From the NCBI GenBank assembly GCA_964532485.1, contig CAZHKE010000011.1:18647-82646 (forward strand): a stretch of DNA of 64,000 nucleotides, in the 5' to 3' direction. The notes under the pieces are model-generated. The model was not told where the DNA came from. It saw only the letters and a program-made list of their open reading frames with translations, and did no database searches. A program made the translations under genes and the position numbers. This DNA is from an uncultured Bifidobacteriaceae bacterium. Its GTDB lineage: Bacteria; Actinomycetota; Acidimicrobiia; IMCC26256; PALSA-555. The first letter of the stretch is position 1; every line of letters starts with the position of its first letter. This document shows positions 2,143 to 46,052 of the stretch, one piece after another.

Positions 2143-3243
2143 TCAGCGCAGGAACTCGGGGACGTCGAACTCGTCGTCCTCGTCGCCGCCCGAGTAGCTC
2201 GTGCGATCCTCGCCGAACGCGCTGTCGGCCGCGGACTTGTCGTGCAGGCCGAGCGACGTCCGCTCCCGACGGGAGGACGAGGAGCGCTCCCCCTCGAAGC
2301 GATCGAAGCCCGCCGCGATCACCGTGATGCGGACCTCGTCGCCGAGCGCATCGTCGATCGTGGCCCCGAAGATGATGTTGGCGTCGGGGTGTGCGGTCTC
2401 CTTCACGACCTCGGCCGCCTCGTTCACCTCGAAGAGCCCAAGATCAGACGGTCCGGCCACGTTGAGGAGCAGCCCCCGCGCGCCCTCGATGCTCGCCTCG
2501 AGGAGCGCGCTCGAGATGGCAGCGCGCGACGCATTCAGCGCGCGGCCCTCGCCACCGGCCTGCCCGACGCCCATGAGCGCGGTCCCGGCGTCTTGCATGA
2601 TCATGCGCACGTCGGCGAAGTCGGTGTTGATGAGACCCGGCGTCGTGATGAGGTCGGCGATTCCCTGCACACCCTGGAGCAGGATGTCGTCGGCCATCTT
2701 GAACGCCGAGAGCAGCGACGACTTCTCGTCCGCGACGTCGAGGAGCCGATCGTTGGGGATCACGATGAGCGTGTCGACCTTGTCGCGCAGCTTGCCGATG
2801 CCGGCGTCGGCCTGCACCGAGCGCCGGCGGCCCTCGAAGCTGAACGGCCGAGTGACGATTGCGATCGTGAGCGCGCCGAGCCCGCGCGCGACCTCGGCGA
2901 CCACGGGTGAGCCGCCGGTACCGGTGCCACCGCCTTCACCGGCGGTGATGAACACCATGTCAGCGCCCTTGAGGACCTCCTCGATCTCGTCGCGGTGATC
3001 CTCGGCGGCCTGCTGGCCGACCTCGGCGTCGGACCCGGCGCCGAGTCCGCGGGTGAGCTGGCGGCCGATGTCGAGCTTGACGTCGGCGTCGCTGATGAGC
3101 AGCGACTGAGCGTCGGTGTTGACCGCGACGAACTCGACGCCCTTGAGGCCGGCGTCGATCATCCGGTTGACCGCGTTGCCACCACCGCCGCCGACACCGA
3201 CGACCTTGATGACCGCCAGGTAGTTCTGCGGGTCGCCGAGCAT
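2143..3243 (-). CDS. ftsZ: Cell division GTPase FtsZ (canonical 366-aa form; the ORF stays open in frame up to GTG 3675)
   Basis: [28 protein letters not shown]... contains the tubulin signature GGGTGTG ([13 protein letters not shown]). The C-terminal peptide [11 protein letters not shown] is present. ATG 3243 is preceded by GGAGG plus 10 nt. See the finding on the upstream 144 in-frame codons. Confidence 0.9.
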
Positions 3244-3543
3244 CTGGGTGGTGCCTCCCCTCGCGGGCGAGTCCAGCTCGCCGGGATGCAGGTCGTCGTG
3301 TGGATCGCGGTCGGTGTCGATCGCCTGGTCGGGTCGGCCGTCGGCCGGGTGGTCGGGTCGATCGTTGAGCCCGGGGTCCTCGGCCCTGGGGTCTCCTGGT
3401 CCATTCTCGCCGGTCGCGGAGGTGCTCTGGGGGATCGAATGGTCCGGCTCACGCTCGGTTGGCGGCTCGGGATCGGGCTCCGGAGCCGGCTCCCACTCGG
3501 TCTCCGGGACCGGTTGAGCGTCGCGCTCGTCCTCCCACGAGTA

Positions 3544-3579
3544 GTCGTCGCCCGGCATGTCGTCGCCCGGCATGTCGTC
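3544..3579 (-). repeat. 15-nt tandem repeat, about 2.4 copies (gtcgtcgcccggcat), encoding (DDMPG)n in the ftsZ-upstream frame
   Basis: Two perfect copies lie at 3544-3558 and 3559-3573, with a partial third at 3574-3579. Confidence 0.8.
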
Positions 3580-3688
3580 CCCGGCCCGGTCGCGGCGGGC
3601 CTGGTCGTCATCTGGCGCAACGATCCAGTCGCCGCCGCCGCGATCGCCACCGGGCAGATGGGGCGTCACCGCCACCAGGATAGGAGCG

Positions 3689-4597
3689 TCATCCCGTCAC
3701 CGGGGCGCCCGGCACGCGGACGTCGACATAGGTGACCGGGGCACCCGCGAGGCTCGTGAGCAGCGCGTCGGCGGCGCGCATCTTCTCGGGCAGTCCGTCG
3801 AGGCCGCCGAGGCGGATCTCGGGGCCTCCCGCCATCAGCAACGCCGCCTGCCCGTGCTCCACCATCACCCGCGCGACGCGCCCCACCAGGGGGCCCAGCC
3901 GGGCCGCGACCCGTGCGCTGGCCACCGGCGCGATGCGCTCGCCCGGTGCCGGGTCCGGCGTGTCGCTCACCAGCGCGGTGAGACCCTCGGGGGGCGCGGC
4001 CGCGACCGAGACGACCGTCCCGGTGGGGTCGACGACGGCGAACGTCCCGTCCGTGCGCGCCACGGTGGCGACGGGAGCCCGGCTCGTGACCTCGATCCTC
4101 AGCGTCCCCGGCAGCTCGCGCGTCACCTCGGCGTGCGCGACCCAGGCGAGCGACTGGATGCGCTCGGCGACGGCCCCCGTGTCGACGAGCAGGAGCGCGT
4201 CGCCGCGCTTGGTCGCAGCGGCGGACCGCACCTCCTGCACGCGTGGACCCGCGCCGCTGACGCTCACCTGGTCGACGTCGAGGAGCGGTGACAGGACGAG
4301 CCCACCCGCGCCGAACATCGCGGCGACGAGTCCCACGCCGATCAGGAGTCGCCGCAGCCGTCGACGGCCGGCCGTGCGCGCGACCTCGACGCGACGCGCG
4401 CGGAACCTCGGGTGCGGCGCGTTCGCGGGCTCGGCCCGCCGCGTCGCCGGGGTGCCACCGGGCGCCGCCCTGCGCCCCGACGTCCGCGACGCGGGCGGCC
4501 GACGGGGAGGTGCTCGACGCGCGCTCGGTCGACGCCCCGGGGGTCTGGTCGCCCCGGAACGAGGCGCGGCGCGGCGGCGACGAGGGGGCGCGCTCAT
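3689..4597 (-). CDS. ftsQ: Cell division protein FtsQ/DivIB (POTRA domain, single TM, Arg/Pro-rich cytoplasmic tail)
   Basis: It has a TM segment ([19 protein letters not shown]) followed by a POTRA-like region ([10 protein letters not shown]...). It sits between murB and ftsZ. I chose ATG 4597 because it forms an ATGA overlap with the murB stop; the ORF track start at 4633 is also possible. Confidence 0.85.
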
Positions 4598-5511: not shown

Positions 5512-6905
5512 GGCGTCCCTCCGGCGTGATCGACGGCGGCGAGCCACTCGTCAGGCACGGTCGTGAGATCACCCGCGCCGAGGGTGAGGACGAGATCGCC
5601 AGGCCGAGCGAGCCGCAGCGCGTGCGCCACGACGTCGGCGCGCCGGGGCAGGTACGTCACCGGCGTCGCCGGGTGCGAGTCGAGGACCGCCTGGAGCACG
5701 AGGCGGCCCGAGACGCCGGGCTGAGGCGCCTCGCCGGCGGCGTACACGTCCGTGACCACCAGGGCATCCGCGTCGACGAAGGCATCGGCGAAGTCGCGCC
5801 ACAAGCGTGCGGTCCGCGTGTAGCGATGCGGCTGGAAGACGGCGACCACACGGTCCCAGTCACCCTCGCGCGCTGCGCCGATGGCCGCCGCGACCTCGGT
5901 CGGCAGGTGCGCGTAGTCGTCCACCAGCGTGACACCGCCGATCTCGCCGCGGAACTGGAATCGGCGCGCGACGCCGCCGAACCCCCGCAGCGCCTGCGCG
6001 ACCGCGTCGAACGGCGCACCGAGCTCGACCGCGATCGCGGTGGCGCCCGCCGCGTTCAACGCGTTGTGCCGCCCGGGCACCGGGAGCTCGACCGTCCCGA
6101 GCAGCGCATCAGCGCGGTGGAGCTCGAAGCGGCTGCCGCTGCGCGACCCCTCGTAGGCCATGACGCGGTAGTCCGCGCCCTCGTGCCATCCGTACGTGCG
6201 CACCTCGGGGACGGATCCGGCGAGGCGCGCGGCGATCTCGTCGTCGGCGCAGACCACCCGGACGCCCGGGACCTGGTCGAGGAAGCGTGCAAACGCGGCC
6301 ACGAGGGCCTCGAAGCCGCCGTAGTGGTCGAGGTGGTCCGGCTCGACGTTGGTGACGATCGCCGCGTCGGGCTCGAGCTCGAGGAACGTGCCGTCGCTCT
6401 CGTCGGCCTCGACCACGAGCCACTCGCCGTCGTCGTACGCGGCGTTCGTGCCGACCTCGTTGACGTCACCACCGATCACGAAGCTCGGCCGCCAACCAGC
6501 CGCACGCAGCGCGAGGGCCAGCATCGACGACACGGTCGTCTTGCCGTGACTCCCGGCCACGGCGATCGCGCGGCGCGTCGCGACGAGCGCACGCAGGGCC
6601 TCCGCACGTCGGAGCACGGGAACGCCCCGCGCGGTCGCTGCCTCGACTTCGGGGTTCGACTGCGGGATCGCGGTCGACACGATCACCGCGTCGACGTCGT
6701 CGGGCAGGTGATCGGCTCGGTGGCCGACGCTCGCGCCGACGCCGAGCAGCGCGAGGCGCTGGATCGTCGGCGAGTCCTTGAGGTCGGTGCCCGTCACGTG
6801 ATGGCCCATGCGCTCGAGCACGGTCGCGATCGCGCTCATCCCCGCACCACCGATGCCGACGATGTGGATCGCGCGCGGCGTCGAGAGATCGAGCTCGTCG
6901 GTCAT
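5508..6905 (-). CDS. murC: UDP-N-acetylmuramate--L-alanine ligase MurC
   Basis: The 465-aa ORF has IHIVGIGGAGMSAIA and AVAGSHGKTTVSSM (Mur ligase P-loop). It has an ATGA overlap with murG. Confidence 0.93.
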   Translation of the reverse strand: MTDELDLSTPRAIHIVGIGGAGMSAIATVLERMGHHVTGTDLKDSPTIQRLALLGVGASVGHRADHLPDDVDAVIVSTAIPQSNPEVEAATARGVPVLRRAEALRALVATRRAIAVAGSHGKTTVSSMLALALRAAGWRPSFVIGGDVNEVGTNAAYDDGEWLVVEADESDGTFLELEPDAAIVTNVEPDHLDHYGGFEALVAAFARFLDQVPGVRVVCADDEIAARLAGSVPEVRTYGWHEGADYRVMAYEGSRSGSRFELHRADALLGTVELPVPGRHNALNAAGATAIAVELGAPFDAVAQALRGFGGVARRFQFRGEIGGVTLVDDYAHLPTEVAAAIGAAREGDWDRVVAVFQPHRYTRTARLWRDFADAFVDADALVVTDVYAAGEAPQPGVSGRLVLQAVLDSHPATPVTYLPRRADVVAHALRLARPGDLVLTLGAGDLTTVPDEWLAAVDHAGGTP

Positions 6906-19963: not shown

Positions 19964-20935
19964 GTGGCACAAGCCGTGCCGGCCCGCCGGATCGACGTCG
20001 CCGCGCTCTTCGACGCCCTGCTGCGCAACGTGGAGCGCGTCATCCAGGGCAAGCGCGACCAGATCAGCCTCGCGCTGGTGTGCCTGCTCGCCGAGGGCCA
20101 TCTCCTCGTGGAGGACGTCCCCGGCGTCGGCAAGACCACGCTCGCCAAGGCCGTCGCCCGGTCGATCGCGGCCACGGCGCACCGGATCCAGTTCACGCCC
20201 GACCTGCTGCCATCCGACGTGCTCGGCGTCTCGGTGTGGAACCGCGCGTCCAACGAGTTCGAGTTCCGCGCTGGTGGCGTCTTCGCGCACGTCCTGCTCG
20301 CCGACGAGATCAACCGCGCGTCGCCGAAGACGCAGTCGGCGCTGCTCGAGGCGATGGAGGAGCGCCAGGTCACGGTCGACGCCCGGACGTACGCGCTCCC
20401 GCGCCCGTTCCTGGTCATCGCGACACAGAACCCGATCGAGCTCGAGGGCACGTACCCGCTCCCCGAGGCGCAGCTCGACCGCTTCCTCATGCGACTCCCC
20501 ATGGGCTACCCGAGCCGCGAGGCGGAGCTCGCGATCCTCGAGACGCACGGGACGGGATACGTGCACGTCGACTCGCTCGAGCCGGTGGCCTCCGCCGCTG
20601 ACATCGCGAACGCAGCCGACGCGGTGCAGAGCATCCACGTGGCCCCGGCGATCCAGCGCTACATCGTCGACGTCGTCGACGCGACCCGCGGTCACCCGGA
20701 TCTGACCTTGGGTGCGAGCCCGCGGGGCGCGCTCGCGCTCCAGCGGGCCTCCCGCGCCCTCGGCGCGGCACAGGGGCGCGACTATGTGATCCCAGATGAC
20801 GTCAAGCTCCTTGCCCCGACGGTCCTCGAGCACCGCGTGATCGTGACGCCCGAGGCAGGTCTGCGCGGCGTCACCGGCGTCGACGCGATCGACACCGTGC
20901 TGGGCCAGGTGCCCGTCCCCGGCGCTTCGGGGTGA
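19964..20935 (+). CDS. MoxR-family AAA+ ATPase
   Basis: Walker A (DVPGVGKTTLAK), Walker B (LLADEINRA), QNPIELEGTYPLPEAQLDRF. I prefer GTG 19964 (323 aa, a typical MoxR length). It is preceded by TACCGT, a -10-like box, 8 nt upstream. The track ORF starts at 19814. Confidence 0.88.
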   Translation: MAQAVPARRIDVAALFDALLRNVERVIQGKRDQISLALVCLLAEGHLLVEDVPGVGKTTLAKAVARSIAATAHRIQFTPDLLPSDVLGVSVWNRASNEFEFRAGGVFAHVLLADEINRASPKTQSALLEAMEERQVTVDARTYALPRPFLVIATQNPIELEGTYPLPEAQLDRFLMRLPMGYPSREAELAILETHGTGYVHVDSLEPVASAADIANAADAVQSIHVAPAIQRYIVDVVDATRGHPDLTLGASPRGALALQRASRALGAAQGRDYVIPDDVKLLAPTVLEHRVIVTPEAGLRGVTGVDAIDTVLGQVPVPGASG

Positions 20936-44838: not shown

Positions 44839-46052
44839 GACGAGCGCGCGAGCTCGAGGGCGTCGCCCCAAGCCGCGCCCTCCGCGATCATGCGCCGATA
44901 CTGCATCACGACTCGAGGTCGGCTGAAGCCGATCGCCCCCACGAGCCGGTCGCCACGCCCCACGGCGGCCACGAAGCGCAGCTCGTCGGTCGACCCGTCG
45001 ACGACGGCGATCTCGTCGTCGCCCCGCACGTGACCCACGACCTGGATCTTGGTCTCGTACTGGTCGGACCACACGAACGGCACGGGCCCGTACGGCTCGG
45101 GGCTGCTCGCGAGCAGTCGAGCGCCCGCCGCGACACCTTGCTCGGCGGCGTTCGTCCAGTGCTCGAGGCGCATCGACTCGCCGCCGAACGTCCGGTTCGG
45201 CCAGCGACACACATCGCCCGCGGCGACGATCCCCGGCGCTGCGAGCAGCGTCTCGTCGCACACGACGCCGTCGTCGATCAGCAAGCCGGAGCCGGCGAGC
45301 CACTCCGTCGCGGGAGCCACCCCGACGCCGACGACCACGACGTCAGCGTCGAGAATCGAGCCGTCGGCGAGCCGGATGCGCTCGACGCGATCGTGGCCCT
45401 CGAACCCGTCGACCCCGGTGCTCGTGCGCAGGTCGACCCCGTGGTCTCGGTGCATGCCGGCGAGCACATCGCCCATCACCGGCCCGAGGCCGCGCACCAT
45501 GGGGCTCGGCAACGCTTCGAGGACGGTCACGGCGAGGTGGCGGGCCCGGCACGTCGCCGCGACCTCCGCGCCGATGAAGCCCGCGCCGACGACCGCGACC
45601 CGGTGCGGCGCACGGTCGAGATCGTCGCGGATGGCCAGGCAGTCGTCGAGCGTGCGCAGCACGTGGATGCCCGGGAGATCGGGCATGGCCGCGAGCCTGC
45701 GTGGTGCCGCGCCGGTCGCGAGCACGACCCCGCGCGCACCGGCGACGACACGACCGTCGTCGAGGGTGACCGAGCGGTCGGCGACGTCGAGCGCGACCGC
45801 CCGGCGACCGAGCTCCCACTCGGCGTCGAGGTCCTCGATCGGCTGGCGTCGCAACGCGAGGTCGTCGACGACCGCATCGCCGGCGAGCAGTCCCTTCGAG
45901 AGGGGCGGCCGGTCGTACGGGCGGTGGGTCTCGGCGCCGATGACGACCAGCTGACCGTCGTAGCCGAGCCGGCGGAGCTCTTCGACCGCGCGCAGCCCGG
46001 CGAGGGACGCACCGACCACGACCACTCGATCCGCACCTGCAGGTGGCGACAC
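44835..46052 (-). CDS. FAD/NAD(P)-dependent oxidoreductase (ferredoxin-reductase / pyridine nucleotide-disulfide oxidoreductase type)
   Basis: VVVVGASLAGLRAVEEL, YDRPPLSK and VAVVGAGFIGAEVA are present. I prefer GTG 46052 because, by my hand count, GC3 falls to about 73% upstream of it. ATG 46139 is the alternative. Confidence 0.85.
   Translation of the reverse strand: MSPPAGADRVVVVGASLAGLRAVEELRRLGYDGQLVVIGAETHRPYDRPPLSKGLLAGDAVVDDLALRRQPIEDLDAEWELGRRAVALDVADRSVTLDDGRVVAGARGVVLATGAAPRRLAAMPDLPGIHVLRTLDDCLAIRDDLDRAPHRVAVVGAGFIGAEVAATCRARHLAVTVLEALPSPMVRGLGPVMGDVLAGMHRDHGVDLRTSTGVDGFEGHDRVERIRLADGSILDADVVVVGVGVAPATEWLAGSGLLIDDGVVCDETLLAAPGIVAAGDVCRWPNRTFGGESMRLEHWTNAAEQGVAAGARLLASSPEPYGPVPFVWSDQYETKIQVVGHVRGDDEIAVVDGSTDELRFVAAVGRGDRLVGAIGFSRPRVVMQYRRMIAEGAAWGDALELARSS

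Follow-up and report, generated by a model that had tools for sequence, protein, structure and literature searches.

The ftsZ gene in the window, the whole 64-kb stretch of DNA analysed here, probably encodes a translated N-terminal extension of 142 residues that is acidic, Pro-rich and disordered, begins at a leaderless start and retains inside its reading frame the Shine-Dalgarno (SD) sequence and ATG of the canonical protein. FtsZ is the central organiser of bacterial division, and its disordered C-terminal linker matters. The proposed coding extension occupies 3244..3669 on the minus strand, which carries every ftsQ and ftsZ feature described below unless the plus strand is named, and comprises 142 codons (426 nt) counted from GTG 3669.

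The open frame between ftsQ and ftsZ

Canonical FtsZ (366 aa, 38.0 kDa) is encoded at 2143..3243, stop codon included, from ATG 3243-3241 to the stop codon at 2145-2143. [quoted passage not shown] The preceding gene, ftsQ (3689..4597), ends with TGA at 3691-3689 and begins with an ATG at 4597 that shares ATGA with the murB stop. The gene order murC-murB-ftsQ-ftsZ was found in the window and at two related loci (L146 and L147), and the ftsQ orthologue of L147 has a POTRA_1 domain. A first-pass annotation of this DNA had reported that the ftsZ frame stays open for 144 codons upstream of ATG 3243 and its GGAGG SD, up to GTG 3675, 13 nt past the ftsQ stop, and that other genes of the cluster overlap by 4 nt. 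All of these coordinates were confirmed on the minus strand, and the overlaps are real (murB TGA/ftsQ ATG at 4594-4597 and an ORF pair at 6902-6905). The frame is open for 151 codons upstream of ATG 3243, to an in-frame TGA at 3699-3697; the GTG at 3673..3675, also used in public gene calls, is its first start codon and would add 144 codons to give a 510-aa ORF. Start calls for ftsZ are inconsistent in Acidimicrobiia: a 510-aa product is called for the window genome (NCBI and JGI sources) and a 368-aa FtsZ for the close relative L001 (PGAP). When near-identical orthologues were sought, the only cluster mate of the 510-aa protein was an identical sequence from a JGI contig.

Counted from GTG 3669, the predicted extension has a mass of 15.4 kDa, a pI of 4.05 and a net charge of -29, and its 40 D+E against 11 K+R residues, together with 24 Pro, bear out the earlier description of it as acidic and Pro-rich. 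The GC contents at codon positions 1, 2 and 3 are 0.82, 0.54 and 0.83 (chi2 p=3e-9), the third value being exactly that of an earlier estimate of ~83%. Pfam searches with the 510-aa ORF gave two matches, PF00091 (Tubulin, E=3.1e-45, residues 156-315) and PF12327 (FtsZ_C, E=8.1e-33, residues 364-458), both downstream of the extension, and no domain within the extension itself. AlphaFold2, run with a 25-sequence alignment, returned a model (mean pLDDT 42.5) too poor for firm statements on disorder, with coil only and no predicted secondary structure over residues 1-153. Rfam gave no match in the whole window at gathering thresholds, so no known RNA element was found in the interval. TRF detected an in-frame 15-nt tandem repeat at 3544..3585 (2.9 copies) that encodes (G)DDMP, and further tandem arrays at 3463-3493 (period 12) and 3326-3378 (period 24); the extension of one relative, L087, has arrays with periods of 63 and 6, and every one of the main repeat periods in the window and L087 is divisible by 3. 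A possible linear motif, of the Trp-acidic type (DYSWEDE and similar), was set aside; by our own estimate the TGG count is close to what composition predicts.

Within the window extension, the ftsZ frame contains 0 stops and the other forward frames contain 2 and 1. The probability of an open frame given the composition of this spacer is ~0.12, and the antisense frame is likewise open; the antisense ORF (2995-3735, plus strand) was set aside as a shadow ORF, its frame not being kept open in relatives. The open frame alone is weak evidence, and its significance comes from the comparative and periodicity tests. Streptomyces and Mycobacterium have multi-promoter ftsQ-ftsZ intergenic regions, and the first-pass annotation had offered as an alternative that the interval is a long, Streptomyces-like spacer with an accidental open frame in high-GC DNA. 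On this reading the interval would be non-coding and T-poor as well as rich in GC, and only the 366-aa FtsZ would be made. The ~12% chance of an open frame, the open antisense frame and the short form annotated by PGAP in L001 all speak for that alternative. The interval resembles those of Streptomyces and Mycobacterium in being long and, in the clade of the window, in carrying two conserved -10-like islands; unlike them, it has in this clade codon periodicity and a conserved open frame joined to ftsZ. Because the interval is periodic and open, any promoters there would be embedded in coding sequence.

Relatives of the window and the probable coding character of the extension

Relatives of the window locus (WIN) were collected by a species-representative genome scan, which also placed the window in Acidimicrobiia, by a metagenome scan and by a protein search. 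Subgroup A (WIN, L001, L002, L004, L147 and L148) has extensions of 92-142 codons that end in ...GRGGTT[DEQ]-M. Subgroup B comprises L006, L087 and L135, with spacers of 320-576 nt, and the protein fragments P0002 and P0020, which were assigned to it by a common C-terminal motif; its extensions end in ...LAGGPTGRTTD-M, and an ATG or GTG lies at or just past the ftsQ stop (ATGA overlap in L135). A low-GC freshwater lineage (L005 and L146) has an acidic 38-codon extension (MENGSEEY...), and L003, whose FtsZ core is 90% identical, has no extension, the ftsZ frame being interrupted by stops in its 183-nt spacer. Close relatives differ in the length of the extension, which lies between 0 and about 190 aa, and more distant Acidimicrobiia have ordinary ftsQ-ftsZ spacers of 80-290 nt. 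The metagenome scan, whose query joined the extension to 30 core residues, brought in a few members of the clade, matched via the FtsZ N-terminus only, and no extension-specific peptide pattern recurred in it. A frameshift in the L148 extension was discounted, as the same long-read contig breaks the ftsZ core too. These organisms are uncultured MAG lineages.

The ftsZ frame contains 0 stops in 7/7 related long spacers, for which the product of the individual probabilities of being open given composition is ~2e-6; the other two forward frames of these seven spacers add up to 12 and 10 stops. In all ten extension-bearing loci (10/10), GC is lowest at codon position 2 of the ftsZ frame, with p<1e-3 in six of them; two, L004 and L135, are only weakly periodic, a point against the coding reading. 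By contrast, none of 17 control ftsQ-ftsZ spacers from related Acidimicrobiia in which the frame is not open was periodic at p<0.01 (0/17), their GC minima being scattered and their GC lower. Stops, periodicity, phase and repeats are four independent lines on which the region reads as coding, and the extension region is very probably translated. An accidental open frame in a non-coding spacer is disfavoured: seven of seven long spacers are open, the periodicity is in phase at 10/10 loci and lacking from the non-coding spacers of relatives, the repeats are in frame, and a conserved start motif, described below, always stands 3n nt from the canonical ATG. We regard this alternative as very unlikely; its promoter idea may be partly right, two conserved islands looking like -10 elements. 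The reading as an N-terminal extension, also put forward in the first-pass annotation, gains from the same frame, periodicity, 3n distances and in-frame repeats.

At the protein level, the extensions are all acidic (pI 4.05-4.95) and Pro-rich and are unalignable outside three short islands, which behave as nucleotide elements. Residue-level conservation of the extension was not found within the clade, where these islands alone align, and the unconserved amino acid sequence counts in favour of a non-coding spacer. Pairwise nucleotide identity of the extensions is 55-67% and saturated, and the pairwise extension alignments showed no third-position excess and no measurable purifying selection on amino acids; at this identity, and with unreliable gap placement, dN/dS and codon-position tests are informative only for L001/L002, in whose extension alignment all gaps are multiples of 3. 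The first-pass annotation had proposed looking in relatives for a conserved frame and acidic character and for dN/dS <1. The frame proved to be open in the 7/7 long spacers and the acidic character was kept, and a dN/dS <1 did not emerge from the saturated alignments. Because the extensions are unalignable, saturated and without third-position excess, selection appears to act on their frame and composition, that is on frame, charge and disorder, and not on residue identity. Selection on frame and composition without residue conservation is the pattern expected of a disordered region.

Probable start sites of the proposed long and short forms

The first-pass annotation had found no TANNNT-type promoter in the interval. 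Such a hexamer, TATCCT, is present at 3677..3682, 7 nt upstream of GTG 3669, and we designate it candidate promoter P1; the GTG (3667..3669) is the proposed leaderless start of a long FtsZ of 508 aa and 53.3 kDa. A sigma-70 and terminator consensus scan of 3100-4000 gave no match, and no -35 element is recognisable. The arrangement C(C)TATC[CA]T-N7-[AG]TG is conserved in WIN, L001, L002, L004, L147, L005 and L146, with TATCAT-N7-ATG in L005 and L146, and L148 has the variant hexamer GATCCT. At the seven loci with TATC[CA]T-N7-[AG]TG, the distance from the motif to the canonical ATG is 426, 378, 309, 276, 372, 114 and 114 nt, a multiple of 3 in 7/7, and the frame is open in all 7. The hexamer TATCCT includes the rare Pro codon CCT, which makes up 3.1% of Pro codons in window genes.

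Translation of leaderless mRNA is usual in Actinomycetota. Their leaderless mRNAs have a TANNNT -10 element 6-8 nt upstream of an ATG or GTG at which transcription and translation both begin, and lack an SD (Shell et al. 2015, PMC4633059). In mycobacteria, an ATG or GTG at the 5' end is both required and enough for translation, and a reporter that carries a further, SD-dependent start downstream can use that one too (PMC4633059). TATCCT-N7-GTG at 3682-3667 resembles the signature of such genes, and ~10 other window genes share it; it differs from the usual leaderless ORF in that the frame encloses another in-frame start, which depends on an SD and serves an essential protein, and in that the transcription start site here is a predicted one. 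TANNNT-N6-8-RTG occurs at only 12 sites on both strands of the window, and 10-11 of the 12 open ORFs of >=86 codons in the true coding frame with non-coding composition directly upstream; at control spacings, 8/24 open coding-frame ORFs. Among the other TANNNT-N6-8-RTG ORFs tested, Pfam domains begin at the proposed N-terminus in 6/10. These counts indicate that the window genome uses the leaderless TANNNT-N6-8-RTG arrangement, a signature that could serve to correct start calls in Acidimicrobiia.

As for the exact start of the long form, GTG 3675, taken as the start in the first-pass annotation, stands just 1 nt from TATCCT, and relatives do not keep a start codon there. Because it abuts the hexamer and is not conserved, the leaderless start is likely to be GTG 3669 instead, an assignment in which we have fair confidence. 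Subgroup B is without the TATCCT motif and would need another mode of initiation, from the ATG at or overlapping the ftsQ stop. In the window, an 8-codon mini-ORF (MTLLSWWR*, 3666..3692) overlaps the ftsQ stop with its ATG (ATGA) and GTG 3669 with its TGA (GTGA), and L147 has a similar GTGA / 4-codon / GTGA arrangement. Speculatively, the mini-ORF might serve read-through transcripts as a relay, with ribosomes terminating and then reinitiating. The ATG that overlaps the ftsQ stop (ATGA) shares the ftsZ frame in L001 and L135, where transcripts reading through from genes upstream may offer further routes to the long form.

A leaderless start could also be of no consequence, if the promoter starts on an RTG by chance, the cell tolerates a long product that has no function, and selection keeps it harmless (soluble, acidic and disordered). 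Any 5'-terminal RTG is translated in mycobacteria (PMC4633059), and the lack of residue-level conservation, the widely varying length and the loss of the ORF in L003 fit a by-product. However, a stop codon making a short uORF would be an easier harmless route and no RTG-bearing lineage has one, and the acidic, Pro-rich composition is kept in two subgroups with different start contexts. We judge a by-product to be improbable and favour a translated extension under selection.

The canonical start has been kept inside this extension. Its SD, GAGGGGAGG at 3254..3262, is embedded in the extension codons R-G-G, and its GGAGG core ends 10 nt upstream of ATG 3243. AGG GGA GG is conserved at the nucleotide level in all subgroup-A loci, with GGA AGG in subgroup B, so that a purine-rich AGG-GGA-G(G) stretch lies 9-10 nt upstream of the canonical ATG in both subgroups. 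The codons concerned are rare in window genes, where AGG accounts for 3% of the Arg and GGA for 6% of the Gly codons, and the canonical ATG is invariant in position in all relatives. In Gaiellaceae (Thermoleophilia), FtsZ likewise has an extension and is without an ATG at the canonical position. Because SD and ATG are kept with rare codons in the clade of the window, whereas Gaiellaceae have no canonical ATG, this pattern suggests that the internal start is under selection in the clade.

Alternatively, FtsZ of this clade could be a protein of 508-510 aa only, in which the internal ATG and purine stretch are inactive relics. The continuous ORF and the 510-aa form given by gene callers agree with this, and Gaiellaceae show that Actinomycetota can live with an FtsZ that is always extended. 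Yet the Gaiellaceae have lost the canonical ATG, which is invariant here, and the rare-codon AGG-GGA-G stands 9-10 nt upstream of it in all extension-bearing loci; the spread of extension lengths in close relatives, between 0 and about 190 aa, is moreover hard to square with an obligatory structural role. A long form alone thus seems rather unlikely to us, and for the production of both isoforms, long and short, another possibility raised in the first-pass annotation, we put the chances at about even.

A second candidate promoter, P2, would have as its -10 element GAGAAT at 3403..3408, within the island GG-N-GA(G/C/A)AAT-G. This island is conserved in WIN, L001, L002, L004, L148, L147, L006 and L003, takes the form ATGGAAAATGG in L005 and L146, and includes AAT, a rare codon that accounts for 4.4% of Asn codons. 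GAGAAT departs from TANNNT at the first base (G, not T), and its identification as a promoter is doubtful. A P2 transcript would have a leader of ~150 nt and encode only short FtsZ; RNA folding of the putative P2 5' UTR (3214-3396) gave z=0.21, with no special structure. Both islands look like -10 elements within coding sequence.

The locus without an extension bears on both islands. L003 keeps TATCCT, followed by GCC instead of a start codon and by no ORF, and it keeps the GAGAAT island out of frame with ftsZ. Because both islands persist there without the ORF, they behave as nucleotide elements, which is a further point for a non-coding spacer. Since L003 lacks the ORF yet keeps both islands, one lineage or more can apparently do without the extension, and the islands may have a regulatory role only.

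Proposed function and comparison with known systems

For the clade of the window we favour a translated extension with two usable starts; the transcription start site, actual translation, isoform ratio and function that we infer for it are as follows. Transcription from the TATCCT promoter (3682-3677) would begin with the G of GTG 3669, ~7 nt past the hexamer, and the 5'-terminal GTG would be read as a leaderless mRNA straight into FtsZ, giving the 508-aa, 53-kDa long isoform. The retained ancestral GAGGGGAGG and ATG 3243 would also allow a 366-aa, 38-kDa short isoform, made either when ribosomes initiate internally or from a shorter mRNA that has a leader and starts at the GAGAAT island (3408-3403). 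The extension would grow and shrink by in-frame repeats under selection on frame, charge and disorder.

In the protofilament, the N-terminus of the FtsZ core emerges on one side and the C-terminal membrane tether lies on the other. A disordered head with a charge of -29 would form a polyanionic brush toward the cytoplasm, away from the membrane, and could tune the lateral association or partner binding of filaments. By analogy with known FtsZ peptides, the simplest hypothesis is a role in spacing or partner selection that could be titrated through the mix of long and short subunits. Tentatively, one gene may supply two FtsZ isoforms through alternative transcription starts, with a long:short ratio set by the cell that tunes bundling, spacing or partner recruitment. 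If true, promoter choice would regulate the divisome, a mechanism not known to have been described for bacterial FtsZ. Our literature search found no paper on Acidimicrobiia FtsZ or on FtsZ isoforms from alternative starts. To our knowledge, the FtsZ N-terminal peptide is almost unstudied outside Anabaena.

Across taxa, the FtsZ N-terminal peptide ranges from a few to about 200 residues, and automatic annotation misses it in 20/97 cyanobacterial genomes (PMC6175996). In Anabaena sp. PCC 7120 the peptide influences how FtsZ polymerises, associates laterally and interacts with SepF (Corrales-Guerrero et al. 2018, PMC6175996), and its deletion increases lateral association and weakens the SepF interaction (PMC6175996). 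The extension described here is like the Anabaena and other cyanobacterial peptides in being an in-frame segment ahead of the conserved GTPase core, with an ORF that is conserved in the window's clade. The Anabaena peptide, however, is ~60 aa long and highly conserved in sequence in its clade, whereas the extensions of the window's clade are 38-190 aa, strongly acidic and Pro-rich, with essentially no residue conservation; they also have a leaderless-type RTG start and the canonical SD and ATG inside the ORF, and are known from sequence alone. An N-terminal peptide of FtsZ is itself known; what appears to be new is an unusually long, acidic, fast-evolving extension that has a start of the leaderless type and keeps the internal one. 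An acidic disordered FtsZ head of 40-190 residues, with fast length change and possible co-expression of long and short forms, would be a natural experiment and would inform on the tuning of filament spacing and partner binding by disordered appendages.

The extension of Gaiellaceae FtsZ, a protein entered in databases under the name FtsZ, is also Pro-rich and acidic (~130-170 aa) with coding-like GC periodicity. No sequence similarity between the extensions of the two groups was detectable. Unlike that of the window, the Gaiellaceae extension has a conserved N-terminal motif, MARRRASMREGPLAELFRATEAAQRQ ... TVEHVPxWEE; this MREGPLAELF... motif is absent from the window extension, which keeps the ATG and SD. 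Gaiellaceae ftsZ has its own start behind a strong SD (AAGGAGG) and encodes a conserved MARRRASMREGPLAELF... motif, and since an ATG is lacking at the start of the core, only the long form is expected there.

The proposed extension and its putative promoters in relatives

The acidic, Pro-rich N-terminal extension proposed for FtsZ (window 3244-3669, minus strand) was compared with the ftsQ-ftsZ intervals of related genomes. In the relative L003, the FtsZ core is 90% identical, and both nucleotide islands, the -10-like hexamer and the GA(G/C/A)AAT island, are kept (CCTATCCT and GGTGAAAATGG; L003:2835-3019). The ftsZ frame there contains stops, both islands lie in another frame, and no start codon follows the hexamer. 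This sequence comparison points to an extension that was lost or absent in L003 while the putative promoters were retained. A different version was found in a low-GC freshwater lineage (L005:2908-3036, isolate name Baikal-deep, and L146:2486-2614), where an acidic extension of 38 codons, MENGSEEY...ESPRGES(R/K)Q, starts with an ATG preceded by TATCAT at 7 nt, and the GAAAAT island immediately follows the start codon.

Frameshifts, probably caused by sequencing errors in homopolymers, break ftsZ itself into two called genes in L147 (2501-3958) and L148 (2501-3891), which lie on contigs of 252 kb and 338 kb with names of the form contig_N. Little weight can thus be given to the single-nucleotide frameshift within the extension of L148.

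Other reading frames and candidate starts at the proposed extension

An ORF of 246 aa runs antisense to the extension and the FtsZ N-terminus (window 2995-3735, plus strand), and its GC periodicity is the mirror image of theirs. Relatives do not keep this frame open, and we rejected it as a real gene; most probably it is a shadow ORF that reflects the high GC content. The DDMPG repeat contains two more in-frame ATGs (window 3556-3573, minus strand), with GGGGAC or GGCGAC directly before each; neither is conserved in the relatives, and they are therefore unlikely starts. Upstream, the 8-codon mini-ORF MTLLSWWR* (window 3666-3692, minus strand) overlaps the ftsQ stop by ATGA and GTG 3669, the proposed leaderless start of the long FtsZ, by GTGA. 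This mini-ORF could act as a termination-reinitiation relay, and a comparable bridge of 4 codons is found in L147.

Gaiellaceae FtsZ

A conserved Pro-rich N-terminal extension of 130-170 aa is also carried by FtsZ of a separate clade of Actinomycetota, which NCBI records list as Gaiellaceae (L089-L105, e.g. L100:1950-2480; L099, L093 and L104). It begins with MARRRASMREGPLAELFRATEAAQRQ, contains TVEHVPxWEE and is preceded by a strong SD, AAGGAGG, while the canonical core start has no ATG in these loci. At a cutoff of E<=1e-10, 595 proteins in the database are matches.

The leaderless signature elsewhere in the window

Besides ftsZ, about 10 more window genes carry the actinobacterial leaderless signature TANNNT-N6-8-RTG, with starts at 46052, 37103, 53173, 28200, 63577, 41784 and 19919 on the minus strand and at 19964, 33101 and 28242 on the plus strand. 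Two divergent pairs (19919/19964 and 28200/28242) are separated by very short intergenic regions, and in six of these roughly 10 genes a Pfam domain begins at the proposed N-terminus.
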